Origin: Podarcis liolepis
Lineage: Eukaryota
Direction: 5' to 3' (one strand)
Length of the DNA stretch: 64,000 nt
Assembly: GCA_965112155.1 (NCBI GenBank)
Contig: OZ218111.1
Below, piece after piece: positions 38,601-63,603 of this stretch. Each line of letters begins with the position of its first letter. Position 1 is the first letter of the stretch. The notes beneath the pieces are model-generated. The model did no database searches. It saw only the letters and a program-made list of their open reading frames with translations, and had not been told where the DNA came from. A program made the position numbers and the translations under genes.

Positions 38601-41600
38601 TCAGGTTTTAGATTCGGGGTGGGGGGGGATGGGGACCAGCTGCCTAATTTAGATAGTTGCTGGGATTTATCCAGTCTTGATGGTGGGTGTTGCAAAGAGC
38701 AGCAGCAGGATACAGGCAGTCAGAGGCAGAGGAACCAGGAAGGCACAAGGAGGCAAATGCTAGCCAAGGCAGAAGTATCGGCCCCCAGGAGACGCCCCAG
38801 CCATTTGACTCCCAGCTACACAGAGAGGAGGGACGCGGGTTAAAGCACAGAGCCTAGGACTTGCCGAACAAAAGGTCGGCGGTTTGAATCCCCGCGGCGG
38901 GGTGAGCTCCCGTTGCTCGGTCCCTGCTCCTGCCAACCTAGCAGTTTGAAAGCACGTCAAAGTGCAAGTAGATAAATAGGTACCACTCCGGCGGGAAGGT
39001 AAACGGCGTTTCCGTGCGCTGCTCTGGTTTCGCCAGAAGCGGCTTAGTCATGCTGGCCACATGACCCAGAAGCTGTACGCCAGCTCCCTCGGCCAATAAA
39101 GCGAGATGAGTGCCGCAACCCCAGAGTTGGCCACAACTGGGCCTTATGGTCAGGGGTCCCTTTACCCTTTACCTTTACACAGAGAGGAGGGGCTTGAATC
39201 TAGATAGCTGTTGGTTAGAGCATGGTGCTGATAACACCAAGGTCACAGGTTTGATCCCCATATGGGACAGCTGCATATCCCTGCATTGCAGTGGGTCGGA
39301 CTAGATGATCCTCACGCTCCCTTCCAACTCTATAATTCTATGAATTCAAGGGAAGTTCAGGGAAGAGGCATTGAGGTGGGGGGGCAGCCATCCCTGTCCC
39401 CACTTCCCAGAGAGCCCGTGACATCAATGCACTGAGAGTTTTACAGACAGTTTATAAACTAAGAGAGTAAAGCTGCAAACCCAGGTGGCAAGGAAGATGG
39501 AAGTGTCCCCCCCCCCCCGTAAAAAGGCCAAGAAGCCAAGAAATTGGTCTGTGCTTCCTTCCATCTCAACTTCATCCTGTTCAGGCAAGCAGCAACCTCT
39601 CTATGAAGGAGAAGGGCAAGAGTGCCCCATGGGGGGAAGCACCTGCTGTTCCACGCCCAAGCAAAAGTGGGCTTTAAAAAAGAAGAAAGACTAGGGCTAA
39701 GGGGACGGTTATCACAGTACCAAACCTGGCAGTAGTACTTTACCATTTACTGGTCTCCACTTTGCTGTCTCGGAAAAGGACCACTGAGAAGCCCTGTGAG
39801 ATTGGAAAGGGGGACAAAAGGAATCTGCAGCAGGCTGGCGGTGTCTATCGTGCCAAGTATGCTAGAGAAAGGAAGAGGCTGCCAAGCCAGAAAATGAGGA
39901 ACTCTGGGCAGAAGTGCAGCACCTCTGGGCAGAAGTACGGCACACTGATAAGCACCTGTCCACAGCAATTCAAAGAAAAAATTACAGAAGCTTAAAAAAA
40001 TTGCTTTGTAGGCTCCTGCTGGTACATCTGAGATATTAATGAAGTATATGAATGAATATGGCACACACAACCCAGCTCACCTCCCTCCCAACCCTGGCCA
40101 TGGAAGCAGAGAGCAGCATTTCAGGCGATGGAAGGGCCTGGTGCCTCCACACAGGAGTTGCTTTTATCTATCACGCTGTAGAGAGAGGATTTAAAAATGG
40201 GAACAAGCTTAGAATTTCTGAATGGCGCAGTGGAAACCTTGCATGTCCCAAAAGCTGAAAAGTAAAAGGCTGAATCAACTGAGCTGGCCTTCATCCCTTA
40301 TGACATAGGTTGCACCAGAACAGGGCCAGCATGGGCTCAAATTACAAGGAGAAGGAACTACGGCTAACCATTGGGTTGTGGGTACTGTTTGGGGGGGGGG
40401 TTGTTGGGGGGGGGTTAAAGAATTTTATTTGCAATATACATATTAAAAGGTTATGGACCCCTGACAGTTAAGTCCAGTCGCGAACAACTCTGGGGTTGCG
40501 GCGCTCATCTCGCTTTACTGGTCAAGGGAGCCGGCGTTTGTCCGCAGACAGGTTTTCCGGGTCATGTGGCCTGCATGACCAAGCCGCTTCTGGCGAAACC
40601 AGAGCAGCGCACAGAAACGACGTTTACCTTCCCTCCAGAGTGGTACCTATTTATTTACTTGCACTTTGACGTGCTTTCGAACTGCTAGGTTGGCAGGAGC
40701 TGGGACCGAGCAACGGGAGCTCACCCCGTCGCAGGGATTCAAACCACCGACCTTCTGATCAGCAAGCCCTAGGCTCAGTGGTTTATTACATACATACAAA
40801 AAGAAAACAATTGTAAAAATAACAAGGAAGGGAAAAAACATGTACTAAAAAATGAAAAAGAAAATTAGAAAAAAGAAAAAGAACGAAGATAAAAAGGAGA
40901 AAAGGAAAAAGAGAAAAAGTAAAAATAGATAAAAGAAGAAAAAACTGTCTATTTTAGATCTTATTAGGACTTACATGAAAATTGTTTAAATGGGTTGTGT
41001 ACTTTTGATGGTCTTATTGTTTATGACTACTTTTATTACGTTTGTAATTATGTGGGTTTTATTCATGTAAATCACCTTGTACATAGTTTTAACTATGAAA
41101 ACGCAGCATACAAATAATATGCATATATTATGCAATAGTTCTTCCTGGAGGCATGGACTGTCCAGGAGCAGCTGGAAGGTGGCAGATTCATTTCCTTAGA
41201 GGTCACCTTCCCGGACAGCGCCCTCTGACCAAGGATGATGAAGTCGAGGACATCCTGCACCATCGCCAGCCGCCCAGACAGTCTCTTCAGACTGTGAGGA
41301 TTCTAGGAACTTAAGCCTCAAACTGCAACAGCAGCAAACTGGAATTGGCTGTTTATTTGCCAGCAGTTCTGTACATGCCAAGTCTATTCCCCAAAGGAAC
41401 AGAAGGTCATCCACAAAATAAGGCTGTCGTCCCTCATCCCCAGATGGATCAACTGCGGATCAGCATGAGGGCAGGAGTGGAAGTTTTGCCTTTGCTGCTC
41501 CGCAACTACAGTGTCCACAAAGCAGAGCCCACTGACGCTTCACAGGGCAGATGCTCTTACCAGCCAAAAATACTGACCTTTTGCTGCACATGGCAAAGCA

Positions 41601-50347: not shown

Positions 50348-51320
50348 GGTAGCAATCTCTCTCTCACACACACTTACACATGCGCGTGTAGCAGCCAATA
50401 TCAGAGTCCCTCCTCTTTGTAACTTAGTTCTGATTTAAACCTCCGGATATATTATTTCAGGCTACAATTCAGATTTTTAAAATGACCCTGCAAATGCAGC
50501 CAGTCCACCATCGTTCTCCGACTGAGAGCTGCTTATAATACCCTCTATGGAGTTTCCATATTTAAAAAAGTGAAAATCCGGACACAAAAGCCTGCCCCCC
50601 CCCCTCAAAATCGTGTCTCCACTAATGGGAGTCCCCCATATATCTGTCAAGCGGTTGGAAAGTGTTTCTTTTTTTACATAGCCACGTGCAGTTCACCTGT
50701 GGCTGTGGATGTCATTGCTGCCTCCCCTCGTGGCACCATGGGTGTAGGCAGGGGGGCAGCTGCTGCCCCCAAATCAAATAATTAAAAGTATTGCAGTTTT
50801 CAAAGAGCAATTTAAAGAGCATTTTGTGAGCATTATTGAAGGGTTGGAGAGATTATCACTAGAAGGAAATGGCAACACGAGGAAATGGACACTCCAGCTA
50901 GATTCTGCTGCCACCAAAGCTCAATTCATCCTTGCTGCCGCTCTGTTAGCCAAATATTCTGCTTTATCGGAACCTGTGGTAAATGCCCTAGTGGTAAATG
51001 CCCTGGCGAGTGCTTTGTAATTTTGCAAAATATATTCGTTAACCACAAGAAAGGTACCTCCTGATGTTAATTTTTTAATTTAACTTTCTAGTTTTCAAAT
51101 GACTGAAGATTTTGAGATTTTCCTGAACACTTGGGGCCAAAAGAAAGTAATTTAAAACAACTGTAGTTGGGACATTTAATTCCGAATCTGCTAGACAGAG
51201 CCAGACAGAGGATGATGACAGATGAGGGTCCTGCTCCCCCCGCCCCCCAAATCCTAGCTACGCCCACGCGGGGCACCTTACGAATTCCATTCTGAAACCC
51301 GCCCTTCCTCCATCCAAAGT

Positions 51321-51335
51321 CGCGGGCGGTTTGAA
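51321..51335 (+). promoter_or_regulatory. candidate CDE/CHR cell-cycle element
   Basis: CGCGG + 4-nt spacer + TTTGAA; a second TTTGAA at 51541-51546. Confidence 0.5.
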
Positions 51336-51724
51336 CGCAGCCCCGCAGCCGAGAGCCTCCTGCCTCTGTATCTTTTGCTAGCTCTACACGTACAAGCAGT
51401 GCATTGAAAGCACATTCCCGCCTCGCCCGCCCCCCCCCCCCAAATCTTCCCTGCAGCGCCTGCTGCGATTGGCTTCCTCGCCCGTGTTTCGTTTTTTTGC
51501 AAAGCCGCGCACAGATCTCCTGCTGCCGCTCTCCTCCCGGTTTGAAGCGCTGTCCCGCTCAGCTTTGCAAGTGCTCGGTCAACGAGCCACGCGCGGTGAG
51601 GGCCGCCTGCCCTTCCCAACCTTTTGCTAGCTCTATGCGCTCGGAGGCGGTAGGCGCGCGCACCCTCTCCTTTTCCCGTCGGGCCTTGCGGGGCGCCGTC
51701 GTTCGCTCTTCGCCGGCCGCCGCG

Positions 51725-51811
51725 ATGATCCACGAGCTGCTGCTGGCGCTGCGCGGCTACACCGGAGGCCTCTTCGTCGCCGTTGGAGGCGGCGGCAGCG
51801 TCTGCCTGCAG
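51725..51811 (+). CDS. TUBGCP4: TUBGCP4 exon 1 (coding part)
   Basis: [29 protein letters not shown], donor gtggct. Confidence 0.88.
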
Positions 51812-54800
51812 GTGGCTTCCCGCTCCGCCCCCTGGGGAAGAGGCGCCCCAGGCCGCCTCCGCCGCCGCCTCCCACCCTAACCGGCTTCTCGTTGCCCTCC
51901 CCTCCCGCAGGTGCCTCAGGAGCCGGTGCTGCCGCCCTTCCTTCACCCGAGCGAGGCCGCCCTCCTGGCCCGCGTCTGCCGCCTCGGCGCCTTCTACATT
52001 CGCTTCAGCGACTTCGTCGAGCAGTTCGCAGCCGAGCACGTCCAGCCGCCGCCCTCGCAAGGAGGCCCCTCGCAGGGCGGGCAGCAGCAGCAGCCTCCCC
52101 CCGGCGCCCCCTCAGCCCCTTCAGCAGCAGCAGCCCTGCCCGTGCAGCCGCAGGTGAGCGGTCCCCTGAGCATGTGCAGAGCGCCTTCCCCGCGGGCGCG
52201 TCAGGGCGTTAGGCAAGCGAGGCCCCCACTTTTGCCCGCCTGCCTGTCACTTCTCCGGCCGTTTATGGGCAGTGACCCTCTGCGGAAGCGACTCGGCCCT
52301 TTCCCTCACAGGCTGTTTCTCTCCGTCCATTCTCGAGGCCTAAAAGAGCCAGGACATCAAGGGCTGCAGCGGCCGCCTCCACATCTCTCTCTCTCTCCTG
52401 CCCCTCAATACCCAGAAGGGCCCCACATCCCTGTCCATGAAGTCCTCCGAGGTTTATTTCCCCCCTGGCTTTCTTTTTCCAATTGCTGGGCCTTGGGGGG
52501 TGTTCATTGTTTTGGCTGCTTTTATGGAAGAACGTTGTCTGTAATACTGCTGTCAAAAAACAGTGATGTTTGTGGAGGAGCTTTCTTGAAAAGCAATGTG
52601 TGCATTTATTGAACAAGCCCTTCTCCTAATTGCACCTCCTGTGCAAGGGCTTTTGTGGCAGGATGCAGTCCCAGAACAATGGAGGGGGTGTTGCGTTGCC
52701 TTTGGGTCGCTTCCACTCATGGCAATAGAGGTGGTTCTAGAGCCTTATGCATGCCAGGAGATTAACCCTTCCTTGATCCACTTTCAGGATCTGCACCCCT
52801 CCCAGCAAGGGATTTATCTGCGAGCTTTCTGCACTGGGCTTGATGCCGTGCTGCGTCCATATCGGCAGGCCCTGCTTGACTTGGAGCAGGAGGTAAGCAG
52901 GGCACAGTGGGTTTCTGTAGTAAATATTGCATGATGCTCTGCCCATCAAATCCAACTGCAGGTTTTTGTCACTAATAGTGGTTTGTTGACTCCTTTTCAC
53001 TAAGCCACCCCACAACTAGACATTGTACAAGAATAGAGCATAAATGACTACTTGCTTGCTTAGCAGAGAGGGCACCAATCAGATTGCATCTGTTGATGGT
53101 GTCCTTCATTATTAAGAGAGACAAAATTATTAGCCATGCAGACAAAAATGCTGATGAGCATTAAATTCCAGCACCATGGCTGCGTAGCTCTGTAGCAGCT
53201 AAACCATAGAGGAGGTGTTGGCCCCTTGAAGCAAGAGAAGACAAGCTTCTCTTCTGGTAAGCAGCAAGGGCACGGCATCCACCCATCTGAGCCAGTTGCA
53301 AAATTGAAGCTCAGAGAGGTTGCAGCTACCTCCTGAACTTTGGTGTGGTGTGGTGGTGGGGGCATGGGGAGAGAGACATGGCTATAAAAGGACAGCAGTT
53401 CTAACACCAAGCTCTAAAATGCCCCAGGGGATCTGGTTACTGGCAGCCAATCAGTTCCAGCCTAGTACTCTGGGTGTAAGTCAAGGGTCAGCAGCAGCCA
53501 CAGACCCAAAATGAGCCCAGAGTGAGTGCAGGGCTGGGGCAACTTATTGACCATGATGCCCAAAGCACCAACTCATGATCTCCCAGGTACACAGTACTGG
53601 AAGGCAAGAGCAGGGAAAGCACAATTGAAGAGGATGAAGGAATCTCCCAAACAGGCAGCAACATGCAGGTTTTTGGGGGGGGAAGAGCAGGCAAGGAGCA
53701 GAAGGAGGAGGTGAGAAAAGGCTAGTTGAGAGAATGGGGAAGAAGAGCTTAATGTAATATTGAAAGCTGAGGCTGGAGGAGTTTCCCTTCTCCACAGAAG
53801 CAGGGGCTAAGGCTGGAGGTGGTTCCAGACCCAGCAGGTGCTTACCTGACAAGCCAACTTGCACCAAGTTGCTGTATTTTCCCTGGCTTCAGGCATAGGG
53901 CTCCACAGCCAAAGATTGTCTGTGCCTCAAATCAGCACTTGCCAATTTGTAATTTAAAAGCAACAGGCCAGTGTAGGTAACAAGTATACTGAATAAACCT
54001 TGCTTTGTTATCCCACTGCTTTGACCTAAAAGGTCTGGACACAGACAGTTCTTGACATGCCAGCCAGTGTCATGCATTGCTAATTCCACCCATGTATGTT
54101 GGATCTCTGTAGGAAACAGTGCCATCCGTATAACTGCTATATTCAAAAAGCTCCAGAGAGTGCTCCTTTCCTGCTTGTGCAACTTAGGATTTGCAAAACA
54201 AGAAGTCAAAACAAAGACTTACTCCAATCTCTCACCCACCTTTCATTTTTTCCAGTTTCTGGCTGATCCTCACCTTACCATCTCGCATGTCAATTATTCG
54301 CTGGATCAAGTAAGTTCTCCCTGCCCATACCTCCCTTCTGTTGGAGGAGCTGCCTTCTCTAGATGGTGCCTTCTCTTCATGGTTGCCTGCTGAAAAGAGG
54401 CTTGCCTATATGAGTGAGCTGTATTAGTTCACACTGACTGCCTTGAATAAGATCTGGAGGTCTGTTTTGAAGGGCAGGACCTCAACTGCTCTTGTTCTTG
54501 TCTGGCTGAGCCCTGGAGCTCTAGCACAAGGGATGGGGCTCCACGGCCAGTTTCCTGTCTCCGATCCTTTTCCTGCAGTGGAATAAATAAAAAAATTGAG
54601 GCAGGAGTAAGCCTTGACACAACCTCCATAAAGGCAAGGATTCTCTTCCTTCCCTCAGTCTGATTCATTGGCTATCCCAATCTCTGTAAGGGCCCTCCTG
54701 CCCCAAGGGACATCCTGTGAACTGCCAGTGTGAGCAATGGACGAGTACTGTATTTTTCGCCCTATAGGACGCACCGGCCCATAGGACGCACCTACTGTTG

Positions 54801-57800
54801 GGGGGGGGGGGAAATAAAGCAAAAAAAAATTATCCCCCCCCCCCTCACCGAGGATATCTGCCCGAAGCGTGGGGCGCTTTGCTTCAGCGCGCCCGGCGCT
54901 CCGGACAGCAGGCTGCTATCTGCAGCCTAGGGAGCCTTGTGGGAACTCCCGCAGGGCTCCCTAGGCTGTGGATATCTGCGCGAAGCGCGGGGTGCTCTGC
55001 TTCGGCGCGCTCCGGGCAGCAGGCTGCTATCCGCAGCCTAGGGAGCCCTGCGGGAACTCCCGCAGGCTCCCCAGGCTTGCTGATAGCTTCCTGAAGCCTG
55101 GAGAGCGAGAGGGGTCGGTGTGCACCGACCCCTCTCGCTCTCCACACTTCAGCGAAAGCCTGCATTCGCTCCATAGGATGCACACAGATTTCCTATAGGG
55201 CGAAAAATACGGTACTTTCTTGAGTCTCTCAGAGAGAGGCTCTTGGGACACAGGAAGCTTGGAAAGAGAGATAAAAGGTTTATCATCCTGAGTGGCTAGA
55301 ATATGAGAATGGAGGGTCTTATACAAGAGCTCTGGCTCCATCTGAGGGGCCACTTACCAGCTTTCCCCCAGAGCACCTTTATTCACCTAGTCAGTTTGGA
55401 GAGGCTCCGGATCCTGACAGGGGACTCAGTCTCTCTTCCCGCCAAAGAGAAAGGAGAGCTGCCTAGGGATGATTATGTATGCATCACTCTTAACTCCTGT
55501 TGGCTGCCTTCCACTGAAAATTAATCTACATTGCAGGCTGCACTGAAGGAAGACAAGGGGGTTAATCAGACCACATTCTTGTGGGGCAGGGGGCTGCCTA
55601 GGCAATCTCAGTTTTTGCTAGAGTACCCATCCTATGAGCAAAGGGCCTCCTCAGGAAAGGTAACATTAGTTTAGGCAGATGCCCATTTTCAGTGATAATA
55701 GCAAAATTCTGGACCCAGGCCAGGTGGCGGCGGCAGCAGCATCAGAGCTTTTCACAAGGAAACTCTGTAGACACACAGAGAAACTAGGAGGCTGCAATCC
55801 ACATGCCTCCTCCAACTGGTTCATTAAGGTGGCACATCTTTTGTGCAGTATTTAATATGTACTTTGGGCCTGAAGGGAAGCTTAGTCTTCCGAACTGCAT
55901 TTATAGCCTGCATTGATGTTGATCCTTGTTAGTTATTGCATCCTTGCCTGATGTTCAATAGGCAACATGGAAGGCCTTTCCTTTCCCCTTTTTTATAGAA
56001 AAAGGCTTGCACAGGCATTATCTTAAGGAACATAATCCTGATCATGCGGAAAGTTTGCAAAAACCTAAAGTGTGGTGCAAGTAATTGTGTGTGGTTTAGG
56101 AAACATACTGTGGCAGAGTGAATCTCTGTGAGTAGAATCTTGGCAGCCATTTCCAATTTCTGATGTCCTAAGCAAGAGAAATCTGACACTTTTATCTACA
56201 CAGCAGGTACAGTGCCTGCACCTTAAAAGGGGGCAAATAACATTCCTTGAAGAATTAATGAAGTTAGGGAGGTCATCTTAGTAGGTGTCTACTTATTTAG
56301 GTAGACTATCGAGGGGAGCCCCAACTGCAGGGTGGGGGGGACAAACCATGAAGGCAACACACAAATGAAGCCCCTGTGCAAGAAGGAAGATACTTCCATT
56401 TTGCTATGTGACATTGAAATTAGGAAAGGCTTTTTCCCACGCAGTCTGTTTCATAGCCTTCCCTATTGGAGTGAGTGGGAGGAGCAGCTCATAGGAGGAT
56501 TCCCAACCCACATTAGAAAAAGATCTCGTCTGTCACATTAAGTACAACACTCTGTTCTCTTTTTTCCCCATTATTGTCTCAAACTAGCAAATCATTCCTC
56601 ACCAGCTGATTCTTGTTTTGCAGTTCCAGCTCCTTTTCCCCTCGCTGATGACTGTGGTGGAGCAAATAAAGACCCAGAAGGTACAGTTGAGAATCCTGAT
56701 CTCCCTTGGTGGTGGCCCTCTTTTCACAGGCACCTGCCTGGCTTGATTTGATAATAGAGGGCAAATTTTGTGTGTAACTGAGATGGTGCTGATTTCTCTC
56801 ACCTCACTAGAGGTGAAAAATGGGAAGTAGGAGTTCTGGTACCATCATCCACAGAAAAGTAGAGCAGGGAGCTGGAAATGCTGCCTGCATGTGGATGAGG
56901 AGCTTCCTCCATCCAGGCTAGCTGGTCTCTGGACCTTCCAGAATCCAGCTGCCAGCCAGTGTTGTAGGAACATATGGCAACATCAGCTCTTGCAAGGGAT
57001 CTGCTTTTCCTTTGCAGATTCATGGCTGTCAAATCCTGGAGGTGGTTCACAGACATAGCCGAGGTGGTCTGCCACCTGTGCGCCGTGCTTTGGAAAAGTA
57101 AGAAACCCTCCTGGGTGGGGCCAGTCCATGCGCTAAGGAGGAATGCCAGGTTATGGGTCCTGGGAACCTGCCCCCTGAACAAGTTAATGTTCCTGAAGTC
57201 CCACTGTTGCCTTGGATGGTGCTTGTTTCCCTGTCCCCAGCCACCAATGGCAGCAGCTCCATTGTGGCTGCAGCCTGGTCAAGCCCCCTTCCCTCTACTG
57301 CTGTGTCCCCCTCCAGGGTCTTGGCCATGTGCCATGCTGCCATGTACAAGCAGCTCTCTGCCTGGATGCTGCATGGGCTGCTCCTGGACCAACATGAGGA
57401 GTTCTTCATCAAGCAAGGCCCTTCTTCGGGGTCTGTCCCTGCCCAGCCCGAAGAGGAGGAGGAGGACCTGGGGATCGGAGGGCTGACGGGGAAACAGCTG
57501 CGAGAGCTGCAGGACATGGTGAGGTTTGGGTGCTAAATACAAAGGAGGCTGAATCCGCCTCCCAATCCCTCTAGCTCGGCATAGTCCACACTGCCTAGCA
57601 GCCCCTTCCTAGGGCTTCACAGGCTTCTGCCAGTTCCACATGGAGATGTTGTGGGGTTGGACATGCAAGGCTGCTTGCATGCAAAGCAGATGCTCAGCCA
57701 CCGAGCCAGGTGCTCTCTTGCCTCGTGAAACCTGCTTAGCCCCCTCCAGTCATCTTTTTGTAGTTGGATCTAGAAGTTTCTGTTTTGATAGCTCAAGTAT

Positions 57801-58943
57801 TCTTTTCTGACTCTTTAGCCATTGTTTCATGGATCAAGAATCCTGCTCTGCTCCCCACTGACACAGATTGGTGGTTCCAACTAAGTCTTAACACACACCT
57901 ACCCTTTGATGGACAGTCCTCAGGATTGGGGGTGGGGCTTTCTATTTGGAGCCCCCACGTTTGTGCGTGGGGTTCTTTGACTTTCCCCCATTTTCACCTC
58001 TCCTTCCAACAGCGGCTGATTGAAGAGGAGAACATGTTGGCACCCTCCCCAAAGCAGTTCTCTCTGCGGATTGAAATGCTGCCATCCTACATCCCTGTGC
58101 GAGTTGCTGAGAAGATCCTTTTTGTGGGAGAGTCTGTCCAGATGTTTGAGAGTCAAAATGTGAGCCTTACCAAAAAAGGTAGGAAACACTTTGACTCATT
58201 TCATTCTGCATGGGGGCAGCAAGGATTGAAAGCTGTAGGGTGGTTGTTTCTTGGCTGTCCATTCATAAGGGCACCCTGGGACATAGCAGGGAAGTGCTGG
58301 GATGCCTCACCAGAGGTCTGCGCAAGATGGAATGGACCCTCCCTGTAAAGCACTCAAGCCACCCCTCCCCCTTGCTCTGCCACTCTTTCCTTGGGGTAGA
58401 GTATGGTGGCTCCGTAAAGGTAAAGGACCCCTGACAGTTAAGTCCAGTCGTGAATGGCTCTGGGGCTACGGCGCTCATTTTGCTTTACTGGCCGAGGGAG
58501 ACGGCGTTTGTCCACAGACAGGTTTTCCAGGTCATGTGGCCAACATGAAAAAGCCGCTTCTGGCGAAGCCAGAGCAGCGCACGGAAACACCATTTAGCTT
58601 CCTGCCGGAGCGGTACCTATTTATCTACTTGCACTTTGATGTGCTTTTGAACTACTAGGTTGGCAGGAGCTGGGACTGAGCAATGGGAGCTCACCCCGTT
58701 GCGGGGATTCAAACCGCCGACCTTCCGATTGGCAAGCCCTAGGCTCAGTAGTTTAGACCATAATGCCACCCATGTCCCTACTATGGTGGCTCCATAGCTT
58801 TTGGTAAAAAGAAAAGAAAAAGTGAGGCCCTGTTGGTGTTTTGCCTCACCAATACAGCCCCCAAGGAGGTGCCTTTAGTGTTTACAGTGAATTAAAATTT
58901 CTTCTTCCTGCTGGTTCTAGCTCTCAGGCTGCTTTCTGATGGC

Positions 58944-58989
<46 letters not shown>

Positions 58990-61900
58990 GACATGCTTCC
59001 TCCTAGCTCTGGTATTTGTACAGAACGACTGGGAAGCACTGAAAATATTTTGGAGCTACAGTGCCCTCCTCTCAGGAAGGCCACTTTGGAACAGCAAGAG
59101 GTTTTCTGACTTAATACCAGCCAGCTGTTTCCAGGAGAAAACAAAGGCAGACCGTCCTCAGCCCACCTCCATTGTCTGCTTTGTTACCGGTTTCCCAAAT
59201 TGTAGTTGCATCTGCTGCCATCAGATGCACTGCAGAGTCCTCAGTGGGCTGGAGTGAAGCTGTTTTCCATTTCCATCTGTTTAAAATATTTGAAGCATCT
59301 TGGTCGTCTACTATATAAGCTTGGGTTGTTGGCATCTGTCAGCCACAAAGCAAAAAGGAGAACAGGCTCTGGTGCTCACAGATGCGAAACTTCATTGAAG
59401 CTCAGTGTGTTTCAGGAGCTTGAAAGGTTTCAAATTCTTACAATTCAAACACTCTCCAGTCTTAAATTCTGACCTATTCAAGAACTTGCTTGAAAAACTG
59501 GGAGAGCAATTCCCCCTTTTCCTCTCCTCCACTTTTCCAAGCTGGATCTTGATGCAGCCTTGAACAGCCTTTGTCCTCTGCAAAGCTCTGCTGATGGAGG
59601 CCGTGACTGGCATCTTGCGTCCAGATTAGGCCACTCTTCCTTGCCTTCCGTTGCCTCACAGGCTCCATCCTGAAGAACCAGGAGGACACCTTTGCGGCTG
59701 AGCTGCATCGCCTCAAACAGCAGCCTCTCTTCAACCTGGTGGACTTTGAGACAGTGGTGGACTGGATACGGAGCACTGTGGCGGAGGTCAGCCGTAGCTC
59801 TAGAGTTGCATGTGCTAAGTTCTTTGTGCGGTAGCAGCAGGGAGCCGTTTGCAAACCCCTCGGCCAGAGCTTGCTGGAAAACCTTTTTCAGGCTGAGGGC
59901 CACATTCCTTCTTGGGATTACATGCTGGGAAGGTGGCAGGGATGGAGTCAAAAGCGCCAGGCCAGGCCAGAGCAACCCCATCACCAGCAGCAGCATCCAT
60001 TCAGTGAATTCTCTCCCCTCTCAAGAAAGGCTAAGTTAAAAGCTCCCATTAGCAACAATAAAAGCTTTAATAAAGCCTAATCTCTGTGGGGGAGATTTGA
60101 TTTTAATGGCAGATCAGTGCATAGAGCGAGGTGATATTAGTCCTCTCCCCTGCTTTTCAAAAGTCTGATTGGTGCGGGGGGAGGGGTGACAGGTGGGGAT
60201 CCAGAATTAACATTTGTCTCTTGCTAATGCACCCTGCACAATAATTAAACTTTTTAAAAGCCTCAACTGTTACAATATCCCATAGACCGGCTGTTTGTCA
60301 GTCCTGCCATATAGAGCATGGAGAGCCTTCCCAGCAATGGGCAAGTAGTCTCTGTCACTCAAAGCAAACAGATCAAGTCCTGGCTGCAGTGGGGTGGAAG
60401 GTCCCAGCAGCAGCTCGGAGCTGCTGCTGCTGGGGATCCCTGGTTCTTGATGCTGATGGACTGTTTTCTCTCCCTTAGCACTTATGGAAGCTCATGGTGG
60501 AAGAATCGGATTTAATAGGACAACTGAAGGTACATGCAAACCTACGGCGCTTCCAAAGCTGTTTCTTTCTCTTTGTGCAGGAGGAGACTCACTCCTGCCA
60601 GTGAAGTGTTGCTTGCAGGGGTCCATGGGTTCTGTATCCTTGATGCATTTAGTCATTCTCTCCTCCTTTCTAGATTATTAAAGATTTTTATCTCTTGGGG
60701 AGAGGAGAACTGTTTCAGGCCTTCATTGACACCGCACAGCAGATGCTGAAGACACCTCCCACTGCAGTGACAGAACATGGTGAGTTTCATGGGCTCTGGC
60801 TTCTCCGTTAGGCTGAGATGGTAAGATTGGTGGATCAGACCAACGACTCTCTACTCAAATACTTCCCTGCTTCCCAAGCCTTTCTACCAAGACTCTTGGC
60901 CCCTGCATAGGCACAGTTTGGCTCTGTAAGCTGTTGTGGCACAAACTCTGAAAAGGCCATGGGGGGTGGGAGAGTGGAAACAGGTGACTGTGCCTTCCTT
61001 GCTCACTGGGCACTCATCTGGAGTAAGTTGTTCTGGTCTGGCTCTCCTCAGATGTGAATGTGGCCTTCCAGCAGTCTGCCCACAAAGTGCTGCTTGACGA
61101 TGACAACCTCCTTCCTCTTCTTCACCTGACCATCCACTATTATGGAAAGGAGCACCGAGGTGGGTGCTGGTGCCAGGGAGCCAAGCAGTCCTAAACAGGG
61201 CAGGTTTAGGCCCTACCACAACTACAAGCACAAAGCCAATTTGGTTCCGTAGAGGCAGAATGGCAGCCCTAGGTCTGGGAAGCTGGGAGTTCAAAGCTCA
61301 AGGCCAGTCTTGTCAATCCCCTGGGTGGCCTGGAGCAAGTCTCTCACCTGCATTAGCTGCCCATTGATAAAATGAGAAGGAGGGTGGCAGGGAAGGAGGG
61401 TGGGGTCCAGCAAGGGTTGCTGCCGTATTGTTGCCCACCTGCCTCCTGGCTTCCTTTTCAGATGCCGCTCAAGCTCGAGATACGCCTTCTCGGGAACTGT
61501 CTCCCCATGAATCCCCTGCATCAGGCTGGGCTGCTCTGGGGCTCTCCTACAGGGTGCAGTGGCCCCTGCATATCCTCTTTACTCCTGCCGTCCTGGAAAA
61601 GTGAGGGCTGCTTTATCCCTGTTTCTGTTTCCAGGTGGATTCTGTGGCATTTTGGTGTCAAAGGTTGATGGTAGCAGAGCACATTTTTCCTGGGTGGGAG
61701 GAGGAGATGCTGGCCTGGTCTGAGCTCCTGGTCTACTTGCCCAGAGACCTGACCCAGCTATCTTTTGCTTGCCTTCCTCTTGGCTTGCAGGTACAATGTG
61801 GTCTTCAAGTACCTGCTAAGTGTGCGTCGAGTCCAGGCTGAGCTGCAGCACTGCTGGGCTCTACAGATGTGGTGCAAGCGCCTGGAATCCAACAGGACAG

Positions 61901-63603
61901 ATGCCATCAAGTGGCAACTGCGCCATCACATGACTTTCCTTGTAGACAATCTGCAGTACTACCTGCAGGTGAGCAGCAACACAGGTCTCGGGGGCTAACT
62001 GAGGCTTTGGTGCTGCTCCTCCAAGGGATATGCATCAGCCAGTTCTCCCAGCAATACCCTAAATCTCCCACCAAAAATTGATGGCTGGAAATGACTGGAA
62101 ACAGCAGGCAGTATATTCTCCCTCACTTTTCCTTATCCTCAGGTGGATGTTCTGGAGTCTCAGTTCTCCCAACTTCTGCAGCAGATCAACTCCACCCGTG
62201 ACTTTGAGAGCATTCGACTGGCACACGATCACTTCTTGAGCAATCTCCTAGCACAGTCCTTCATTCTGCTGAAACCAGTGAGTGATCCCCATAGCCTGTT
62301 TGCCTTGTGTCCCCAGGAGAACTGGTCCTGTTCGAACAGTCCAAATGCCCATCCAGTGCAGCACTCCTAGCTCACTTCAATGCAAACATGGCAAGAAGGA
62401 ACTAAAGCAAAAGCCAGACCCTTGTGAACATGGCTGTGTTGCTTGGCCATGAGCACAACCAAAGCCCTTACCTGCTAAAGTGAATAATGAAGTACAGGTC
62501 TGTATAGAAAAGCAGGATAGAAAATAAATGAACTGCAACTGTGTCAGTTTGCCTTCATTATGTGTTTTTTGGGGGGGAGTGTCTTCCTGGTGACTTGGTA
62601 GCATTTGGCAATCTGGAGAAGCCTGTCAAAGTCCTTCCCCAGAGCACCAGGAAAGTAGGTATGTTCATTGGTCTTGGAAACTCATGTTTAGAGCAGCTTA
62701 TGATGCTTGAACAGAAATTTCAGGCTTTGGTAGCTGCTGTTCAGTGTATGAAGATTTTTGGTTTTTGTTTGATTGCATCAGCTCCATTAGACCTACTAAG
62801 CAAGAAGTGAAATGGTTTGAGTAAACCAGTCCAAATAATCCTGCTGAATCTGGTCATTATCTCAGGCTGCGGAAGGGCAAGACGAGAAGCATCTGCTCTG
62901 GTGAGGCCCTCCTGGACCTTCATCTCCATTCTGCTCTTTGGTTTTGCAGGCTTTCCACTGTCTGAATGAAATACTGGATCTATGCCATAGCTTCTGCTCA
63001 CTTGTCAGCCAGAACCGGGGACCATTGGATGAGCGGGGGACGGCCCAGCTGAGCATCCTGGCCAAGGTGGGCCTTGCACTTTTCTACCTGAAAAACATCG
63101 CCCAAAGCTTTTGGGTCTTCTCTCCTGTGGATGCTGTTGGAAACTCAGAGCAGCCAGCTCTCTGATGAATTCAGCATGGGGTGGGGGAGGGGGTAGGAAC
63201 ACAAGAAGTCTGGCCATTGCTCTTCCATGAAGCTCATCAGAAACAGCCTTGTCCAGGCCCTTGTGGCATACTGGCAGCAACAGCTGGGGCCTTTCCTCCT
63301 CCAGGACAGCAATTCCCAAAGGGTGAGCGATGAGGTGGGGCAGTTGCCTGGGATGCTCTCTCCCCATATGGGTTCGAGTGGCCTTCAAGTCATCTCTGTT
63401 CAGCCCTTTCTGCTAAGGCAGAGCCCTCAATTTATGGCTCATGGGTGCTGTTTACCTTTGCAGGGCTTCAGCTGTCAGTCTTCACTCCTTTTCAAGATCC
63501 TCTCCAGTGTTCACAATCACCAGATCAATTCAGACTTGGCTCAGTTGCTGTTACGTCTTGACTACAACAAATACTATACCCAGGCTGGAGGCACCTTGGG
63601 CAG
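51725..63603 (+). CDS. TUBGCP4: Gamma-tubulin complex component 4 (GCP4), exons 1-17; last few codons unresolved
   Basis: 17 GT-AG exons join in frame (2093 nt). Starts MIHELLLAL; contains [47 protein letters not shown] and [14 protein letters not shown], all characteristic of GCP4. Confidence 0.96.
51911..52153 (+). CDS. TUBGCP4: TUBGCP4 exon 2
   Basis: [26 protein letters not shown]...low-complexity tail...PVQPQ, donor gtgagc. Confidence 0.88.
52788..52892 (+). CDS. TUBGCP4: TUBGCP4 exon 3
   Basis: [35 protein letters not shown]. Confidence 0.95.
54256..54309 (+). CDS. TUBGCP4: TUBGCP4 exon 4
   Basis: [18 protein letters not shown]. Confidence 0.95.
54748..55212. mobile_element. Tc1/mariner-type MITE with internal hairpin repeats
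   Basis: TA-CTGTATTTTTCGCCCTATAGGA...TCCTATAGGGCGAAAAATACGG-TA (22-bp TIR, 1 mismatch). Confidence 0.88.
56624..56680 (+). CDS. TUBGCP4: TUBGCP4 exon 5
   Basis: [19 protein letters not shown]. Confidence 0.95.
57018..57097 (+). CDS. TUBGCP4: TUBGCP4 exon 6
   Basis: [27 protein letters not shown]. Confidence 0.95.
57317..57518 (+). CDS. TUBGCP4: TUBGCP4 exon 7
   Basis: [32 protein letters not shown]...LRELQDM. Confidence 0.96.
58013..58178 (+). CDS. TUBGCP4: TUBGCP4 exon 8
   Basis: [19 protein letters not shown]...[16 protein letters not shown]...TKK. Confidence 0.96.
58417..58779 (-). mobile_element. Sauria SINE, full length
   Basis: (AAAGGT)n tail at the left; flanking direct repeat TATGGTGGCTCC(G/A)TA starting at 58402 and 58782. 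Confidence 0.92.
58947..58987. repeat. (TG)n microsatellite
   Basis: read directly. Confidence 0.95.
59662..59786 (+). CDS. TUBGCP4: TUBGCP4 exon 9
   Basis: [41 protein letters not shown]. Confidence 0.96.
60479..60529 (+). CDS. TUBGCP4: TUBGCP4 exon 10
   Basis: [17 protein letters not shown]. Confidence 0.95.
60674..60779 (+). CDS. TUBGCP4: TUBGCP4 exon 11
   Basis: [35 protein letters not shown]. Confidence 0.96.
61052..61159 (+). CDS. TUBGCP4: TUBGCP4 exon 12
   Basis: [35 protein letters not shown]. Confidence 0.96.
61462..61600 (+). CDS. TUBGCP4: TUBGCP4 exon 13
   Basis: [46 protein letters not shown]. Confidence 0.96.
61791..61968 (+). CDS. TUBGCP4: TUBGCP4 exon 14
   Basis: [22 protein letters not shown]...[11 protein letters not shown]. 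Confidence 0.96.
62143..62277 (+). CDS. TUBGCP4: TUBGCP4 exon 15
   Basis: [45 protein letters not shown]. Confidence 0.96.
62950..63066 (+). CDS. TUBGCP4: TUBGCP4 exon 16
   Basis: [39 protein letters not shown]. Confidence 0.96.
63464..63603 (+). CDS. TUBGCP4: TUBGCP4 exon 17
   Basis: [46 protein letters not shown], donor gtaggc. Confidence 0.95.

Follow-up and report, generated by a model that had tools for sequence, protein, structure and literature searches.

The TUBGCP4 orthologue of Podarcis liolepis and a probable lasting relaxation of GCP4 in squamates

Mutations in human TUBGCP4 are associated with microcephaly with chorioretinopathy. Two described systems lie close to the locus analyzed here. 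One is the lineage-specific rate shift (heterotachy) with CpG-driven turnover of arginine; replacement of Arg by His, Cys or Gln is among the commonest exchanges in vertebrates, and squamate GCP4 resembles this pattern in its recurrent R516Q and R621C substitutions. Unlike ordinary heterotachy, the GCP4 shift covers a whole order and affects an essential gene that is haploinsufficient in the mouse. The other system is vertebrate GCP4 itself (PF17681 and PF04130; PDB 3RIP and 6V69 chain I), which occupies gamma-TuRC spokes 9 and 11. The lizard protein shares its domain layout, its best PDB matches, TP53BP1 as a neighbour and 18 of the 22 modelled gamma-tubulin contacts. It differs in its identity to chimpanzee GCP4 (about 85% in squamates, against 95% in birds and turtles and 92% in frogs), in 19 squamate-fixed residues, in a remodelled, GC-rich N-terminus that carries a low-complexity insertion, and in its last residues. 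Mouse GCP4 is described as essential and haploinsufficient in PMC7206048, and 10.1101/2024.11.05.622067 places the NEDD1 pinwheel on the underside of the GCP4 GRIP1 domain.

The TUBGCP4 gene and its copy number

The window is the whole 64-kb stretch of contig OZ218111.1 (assembly GCA_965112155.1; 64,000 nucleotides) that was analyzed, and it holds all but the last exon of TUBGCP4.

51725..63603, plus strand: TUBGCP4, 17 of 18 coding exons inside the 64-kb window
51725-51811, 51911-52153, 52788-52892, 54256-54309, 56624-56680, 57018-57097, plus strand: TUBGCP4 exons 1-6
57317-57518, 58013-58178, 59662-59786, 60479-60529, 60674-60779, 61052-61159, plus strand: TUBGCP4 exons 7-12
61462-61600, 61791-61968, 62143-62277, 62950-63066, 63464-63603, plus strand: TUBGCP4 exons 13-17
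51725..52153, plus strand: exons 1-2, lying in a CpG island; the first intron spans 99 bp, and the alignment shows about 35 inserted residues rich in Q, P and A

The 18th exon starts at the equivalent of position 64101, just outside the window. The 17 exons have GT-AG ends throughout and give 697 codons with no stop, in agreement with the original prediction of an intact ORF and splice sites, and their splice joints are present in sequencing runs of close relatives. The encoded protein is 99.7% identical to P. muralis GCP4 (2 residues differ), in which Pfam recognizes GCP_N and GCP_C, corresponding to GRIP1 and GRIP2. Two window exons matched only GCP4 in the PDB. Searches of the genome with two exons gave a single match each, and a PF04130 profile search found at least five loci, assigned to GCP2, GCP3, GCP4, GCP5 and GCP6. 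No second TUBGCP4 was found by the two exon searches and the profile search, which scored the best candidates only, so that the copy number is a lower bound. TUBGCP4 is flanked by IQGAP1 and TP53BP1, the latter (Tudor and BRCT exons, minus strand) lying downstream and tail-to-tail; TP53BP1 adjoins TUBGCP4 in human as well. IQGAP1 and GCP4 carry consecutive accessions on equal-sized contigs in a hummingbird and in Eublepharis, and relocation of TUBGCP4 within squamates was rejected because birds show the same IQGAP1 adjacency. The single matches, the assignment of the five loci and the conserved neighbours contradict the suggestion that this copy is a paralog: the gene is an ordinary, intact TUBGCP4 orthologue, neither a paralog nor a decaying copy.

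It had also been proposed that purifying selection is relaxed on this copy. The terminal branch of the window protein is short (0.019); relative-rate tests gave no higher rate than in Rhineura (7 vs 14, p=0.19) and a lower one than in Anolis (11 vs 38) and Vipera (12 vs 38), and among the exonic differences listed for close relatives, 11 of 11 are synonymous. The proposal is therefore not supported for the individual copy and survives at the scale of the clade, where GCP4 is accelerated relative to IQGAP1 and GCP5.

Residue changes and arginine turnover

Chimpanzee GCP4 served as the reference for Arg (R331, R443, R502, R516, R621 and R634; 667-aa numbering), and Arg is seen directly in human GCP4 PDB chains at 502, 516 and 634. 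Residue sharing was counted among 25 other squamates and 21 non-squamates (7 mammals, 9 birds and turtles, 5 frogs); at residues 621 and 634, 23 squamates with a homologous C-terminus were used, two rows with other C-termini being left out.

58049..58051, plus strand: L254P (CCA); P in 25/25 other squamates, L in 21/21 non-squamates
59763..59765, plus strand: R331W (TGG); W in 24/25 other squamates and 9/9 birds and turtles, R in 7 mammals and 5 frogs
61506..61508, plus strand: R443H (CAT); H in 25/25 other squamates, R in 21/21 non-squamates
61870..61887, plus strand: variable patch 501-506 with Q501W, R502C (TGC, 61873), H504R and K506E
61915..61917, plus strand: R516Q (CAA); Q in 4/25 other squamates (P. 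muralis, Euleptes, Crotalus, Vipera), otherwise R
63016..63018, plus strand: L601R (CGG), an Arg gain; R in 17/25 other squamates
63473..63475, plus strand: R621C (TGT); C in 16 and S in 7 of 23 squamates, C in 5/5 frogs, R in tuatara
63512..63514, plus strand: R634H (CAC); H in 23/23 squamates, R in 21/21 non-squamates and tuatara

The six codons reported as Arg losses (starting at 59763, 61506, 61873, 61915, 63473 and 63512) are in frame with the quoted peptides, chimpanzee has Arg at all six, and the two further non-conservative changes, L254P and L601R, were confirmed. An origin of each codon by a single CpG transition out of CGN would fit the data. Dated solely by the living groups that carry it, R331W is a sauropsid-wide change rather than a lizard-specific one, and C621 recurs in all five frogs, so that the six sites are in part variable across vertebrates. 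By the same reckoning, R516Q is recent and recurrent, having arisen again in vipers and in a gecko, which makes three lineages. R443, R502, R634 and L254 are altered in all squamates compared; at residue 502, 20 of the 25 have C, 3 have S and 2 have G, and none keeps R. W501 is shared with P. muralis alone among these, and residue 504 varies among R, G, S and C. L601R is common to lacertoids, iguanians, Varanus and snakes, with L in 6 geckos and Hemicordylus and F in Lerista. Residues 516 and 634 are modelled gamma-tubulin contacts, corresponding to Arg515 and Arg633 in PMC3655011.

Among columns without variation in 9 other amniotes, Arg was changed more often (7/27) than other residues (45/556; p=0.007, post hoc). 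CpG-type Arg losses exceed those of IQGAP1 (5/27 vs 0/58, p=0.002), with p=0.075 against GCP5 (1/37, viper rows) and p=0.058 when expressed as a share of all changes (5/52 vs 0/46 in IQGAP1), all post hoc; the original prediction had overlooked 9 Arg gains, which stand against 7 losses and bring the window protein to 32 Arg (29-31 in other amniotes). Radical changes were not significantly enriched (14/52 vs 5/46 in IQGAP1, p=0.07; vs GCP5, p=0.32).

A rate shift across squamates

Rates were compared at the protein level, with two control genes of differing taxon sets: for IQGAP1 the P. muralis protein stood in place of the window's, and GCP5 was represented by five toxicoferans, with no gecko or lacertid. 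The sequences retrieved for GCP4 included no crocodilian, and tuatara was represented by a 140-residue fragment. IQGAP1 had been described as well conserved beside GCP4; its raw identity to primates is barely better (87.8% vs 85.5%), and the contrast lies in birds, in which GCP4 reaches 95% and IQGAP1 89%. Root-to-tip distances in squamates were 7.3 times those in turtles and birds for GCP4 (7.2 without the first 74 residues), compared with 1.9 times for IQGAP1 and 2.7 times for GCP5. Relative to the archelosaur-mammal mean, the squamate ratio was 6.0 for GCP4 (bootstrap range 4.3-9.1, n=25) and 1.6 for both IQGAP1 (1.45-1.79, n=12) and GCP5 (1.2-1.74, n=15). The GCP4 protein rate in squamates is thus raised beyond the lineage background set by IQGAP1 and GCP5.

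Both the squamate stem (3.2 vs 0.7) and the crown (2.8 vs 0.9) are raised, as a lasting relaxation predicts. Amniote columns that are invariant but for this lineage hold 52 changes, 37 of which are common to the window protein and a gecko. The tuatara fragment retains the old residue at 6/6 informative sites in 533-667, indicating that the shift set in along the squamate stem and lasted. None of the papers searched was found to describe a squamate GCP4 speed-up, though TUBGCP4 may figure in supplementary tables of genome-wide selection.

Explanations for the shift

This is an intact, spliced, single-match orthologue whose protein has evolved, in the squamates compared, about 3-4 times faster than the two controls predict; we consider it probable, from comparison of sequences, that a partial and lasting relaxation dating from the squamate stem underlies that rate. 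Constraint on GCP4 would have loosened in the squamate ancestor. With slightly deleterious changes now tolerated, methyl-CpG transitions (Arg to His, Cys or Gln), as the most frequent mutations, would have been among the earliest to reach fixation, and Arg was presumably gained at other sites. The loosened part may lie mainly in the N-terminal GRIP1 base and in surface loops; the gamma-tubulin-binding core would remain under purifying selection, so that GCP4 would keep its place in gamma-TuRC spokes 9 and 11. AlphaFold2 run on an 18-sequence GCP4 alignment gave a pLDDT of 37, too low for use.

The strongest rival, which we regard as unlikely, is adaptive or compensatory remodelling. Positive selection on the squamate stem would have acted on GCP4 surfaces, either by themselves or together with a partner (MZT1:GCP3 modules and NEDD1, GCP6, ATG7), and the new state would have been conserved afterwards. 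This rival is favoured by the 19 changes fixed in 12 squamates vs 7 other amniotes, by a stem branch (0.106) longer than most crown paths, by clusters of change at residues 1-100 and 501-522, by the position of R516Q and R634H at modelled contacts, and by the docking of NEDD1 on GRIP1. On the other side, the crown is likewise about 3 times faster, modelled contacts are not enriched for change (4/22 vs 24/267, p=0.25), the acceleration of GCP5 is no greater than that of IQGAP1 when set against the archelosaur-mammal mean, and MZT1 and MZT2 are present; loss of either was accordingly rejected.

Many stem changes were later held fixed across squamates, a pattern that adaptation or entrenchment would explain as readily as drift.

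Less probable again is local mutation pressure, namely more intense methylation in the germline, or a raised mutation rate, over this gene in squamates, which would have lifted dN and dS together under unchanged selection. The low CpG o/e of GCP4 would suit it, both at codon junctions (core 0.17 vs 0.43 in IQGAP1) and in introns (0.12 in introns 9-16 vs 0.27, p=5e-5), as would the excess of CpG-type Arg losses over IQGAP1 and the occurrence of R516Q in three lineages; however, only 6/52 GCP4 changes are CpG-compatible in context, 18 run from AT to GC, and the neighbouring IQGAP1 is not similarly accelerated.

Exons 1-2 are the part of squamate GCP4 changed most (42 differences from chimpanzee in residues 1-100, 10 in falcon), and the first 110 codons have a GC content of 0.70-0.74, a GC3 of 0.85 and a codon-junction CpG o/e of 1.1. 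GC-biased gene conversion at the CpG-island promoter may contribute to these exons. As the driver of the substitutions at large it is very improbable, given that the changes show no directional excess (18 AT-to-GC vs 15 GC-to-AT; 12 vs 7 in IQGAP1), that core GC3 (0.62) is below that of IQGAP1 (0.68), and that acceleration in the core by itself reaches 7.2-fold. A copy peculiar to this lizard, whether duplicated or decaying, to which Q501W, R516Q and a few other recent changes might point, is scarcely credible beside the conserved neighbours, the short terminal branch, the synonymous differences listed for close relatives, the splice joints in their runs, and genome searches whose best candidates included no second copy.

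GCP4 keeps about 92-95% identity between frogs and mammals, yet a whole order carries 19 fixed changes. Tolerated natural variants such as R443H, R634H and L254P help to read human missense alleles, although compensation may apply. Squamate GCP4 also offers a direct route to separating the surfaces used for ring assembly from those used for recruitment. It is conceivable, though we would not expect it, that the GCP4 face of the squamate gamma-TuRC was remodelled along the stem lineage, with changes in the GRIP1 base that docks NEDD1 and MZT1:GCP3 modules and in the residues beside gamma-tubulin; lizards and snakes would then recruit or regulate their microtubule nucleator unlike other tetrapods.

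Gene structure and neighbours of TUBGCP4

TUBGCP4 is an already known gene, and its reading frame and splice sites in the window are intact, as originally predicted.

51725–63603: TUBGCP4, 17 exons within the window, the last exon just beyond it; GT-AG ends, 697 open codons
47600–48900 and 51300–52300: CpG islands about 3 kb apart, at the divergent IQGAP1 and TUBGCP4 starts
51911–52153: exon 2, with a Q/P/A-rich insertion
61601–61790: intron 13
58400–58790, 54750–55200 and about 38760–39170: high-copy interspersed repeats
G000:C15:26228001–26258000 (L001–L003, just past the window): TP53BP1, minus strand, ending within ~1.3 kb of the window end

GT-AG-joined contigs or reads were present in 4/4 and 3/4 runs of two sets from close relatives, the RNA origin of most runs being presumed. 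Low-depth contigs from several runs either kept intron 13 or spliced it differently, with a joint at 61631–61788 in one (X7). Pile-up in RNA runs was heavy on the repeats at 58400–58790 and 54750–55200; the 58400 element, which resembles the Sauria SINE, has a look-alike near 39000.

The suggestion that this copy is a diverging paralog was not supported by whole-genome searches. Two exons (2 and 4 candidates scored) had one match each across 1.57 Gb, and the 19 PF04130 matches fell into five loci, namely GCP2, GCP6, GCP5, GCP3 and the window TUBGCP4. GCP3, GCP5 and MZT1 share a chromosome-scale contig (C4; 28.1, 34.96 and 9.4 Mb). IQGAP1 lies upstream and TP53BP1 downstream on the opposite strand. 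IQGAP1 and GCP4 have consecutive accessions in hummingbird and Eublepharis, indicating that this gene order predates squamates. Since GCP4 contigs extend ~1.4 kb beyond exon 17, the 3′ ends of GCP4 and TP53BP1 may overlap.

Age and rate of the GCP4 changes

All six codons proposed as arginine losses were found at the stated positions with their quoted peptides, and chimpanzee has arginine at each (6/6; human chains directly show 3). The comparison set comprised named full-length matches, one per species, from 25 other squamates, 9 birds and turtles, 7 mammals and 5 frogs.

Lineages sharing each change
58049, L254P: 25/25 squamates
59763, R331W: 24/25 squamates, 9/9 birds and turtles
61506, R443H: 25/25 squamates
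61873, R502: 20 C, 3 S and 2 G in 25 squamates, Arg in none
61915, R516Q: 4/25 squamates, in three separate lineages
63016, L601R: 17/25 squamates
63473, R621: 16 C and 7 S in 23 squamates; C in 5/5 frogs
63512, R634H: 23/23 squamates, two rows with other C-termini excluded

A 140-residue tuatara fragment retains V579, L601, A609, V616, R621 and R634. Together with the residue sharing, this places the shift after the tuatara split and, for the most part, before the gecko split, an interval of about 250 to 200 million years ago.

On fixed species topologies (JTT+G4; stretches below 35% identity masked, 15–73 columns per squamate GCP4), GCP4 root-to-tip distance was 0.18 in squamates versus 0.025 in turtles and birds, a ratio of 7.3 (7.2 from residue 75 onward), compared with 1.9 for IQGAP1 and 2.7 for GCP5. 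Against the archelosaur and mammal mean, the ratios were 6.0, 1.6 and 1.6 for GCP4, IQGAP1 and GCP5; their bootstrap ranges did not overlap, with few replicates (25, 12 and 15). Relative-rate counts agreed: 59:7 for GCP4 and 89:67 for IQGAP1 between the window and falcon (Fisher p=1e-6), and 79:7 for GCP4 and 87:27 for GCP5 between viper and tortoise (p=0.004). Both stem and crown squamate branches were elevated, and the absolute pace approximated that of IQGAP1; the extremely slow evolution that GCP4 shows in other tetrapods has been lost in squamates. In the GCP5 tree, placental branches were long (0.16–0.20 from the amniote root), with turtles and birds at 0.05–0.07 from the saurian root; this would be a rate change distinct from that in GCP4, in a different component of the gamma-TuRC.

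Constraint and the distribution of changes

Relaxed selection, as originally proposed, probably describes the squamate-wide acceleration and is not supported for the window copy, whose lineage is among the slower squamates in the GCP4 tree. One set of close-relative runs gave 12 differences, 7 of them exonic and all synonymous; a second gave at least 4 further exonic differences among those listed, again all synonymous. With 498/2091 sites synonymous, 11/11 has p ~1e-7 under neutrality, for listed differences only and ignoring transition bias. Against this pattern stand two residue differences from Podarcis muralis (99.7% identity), which map to the low-complexity insert and to the acidic loop.

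Within residues 1–100, the window protein differs from chimpanzee at 42 positions; falcon GCP4 differs from chimpanzee at 10. Exons 1–2 lie within the promoter CpG island, exon 2 because intron 1 is just 99 bp. The length of the exon 2 insertion differs between squamates, with Podarcis and Rhineura having the longest among those aligned. GCP4 occupies spokes 9 and 11 (10.1101/820142, available text), and the NEDD1 pinwheel sits on its GRIP1 underside (10.1101/2024.11.05.622067, available text). Adaptive remodelling of GCP4 seems unlikely to us: at the 22 gamma-tubulin contacts of a molecular-dynamics model, as given in the available part of PMC3655011, 4 differ from chimpanzee, one also in birds and turtles, and changes were not enriched (p=0.25). 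For mouse GCP4, lethality in the embryo, haploinsufficiency in the retina and binding to ATG7 are reported (PMC7206048, available text).

Arginine turnover and the preferred explanation

The proposed methyl-CpG deamination signature was borne out in part. At columns invariant in other amniotes, arginine changed at 7/27 versus 45/556 for other residues (p=0.007), and five CpG-type arginine losses in GCP4 compare with 0/58 in IQGAP1; the excess over GCP5 was not significant. The gene body is strongly CpG-depleted, so deamination is active there. On the other side, nine arginine gains leave the total at 32 (29–31 elsewhere), with no net drop, and only 6/52 changes are CpG-compatible in context. 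Changes ran 18 AT-to-GC and 15 GC-to-AT. Deamination accounts for a minority of the acceleration, and local mutation pressure as its cause is improbable, more so than adaptive remodelling.

No earlier report of the squamate rate shift was found in the literature searched, which included few subscription papers and no supplements. The evolutionary pattern is real but modest, and its scale and age differ from the original prediction. We somewhat favour a lasting, partial loosening of constraint on GCP4 from the squamate stem onward, chiefly at the N-terminal base and surface loops, in which CpG transitions and other frequent mutations would have been fixed first while the core was kept.
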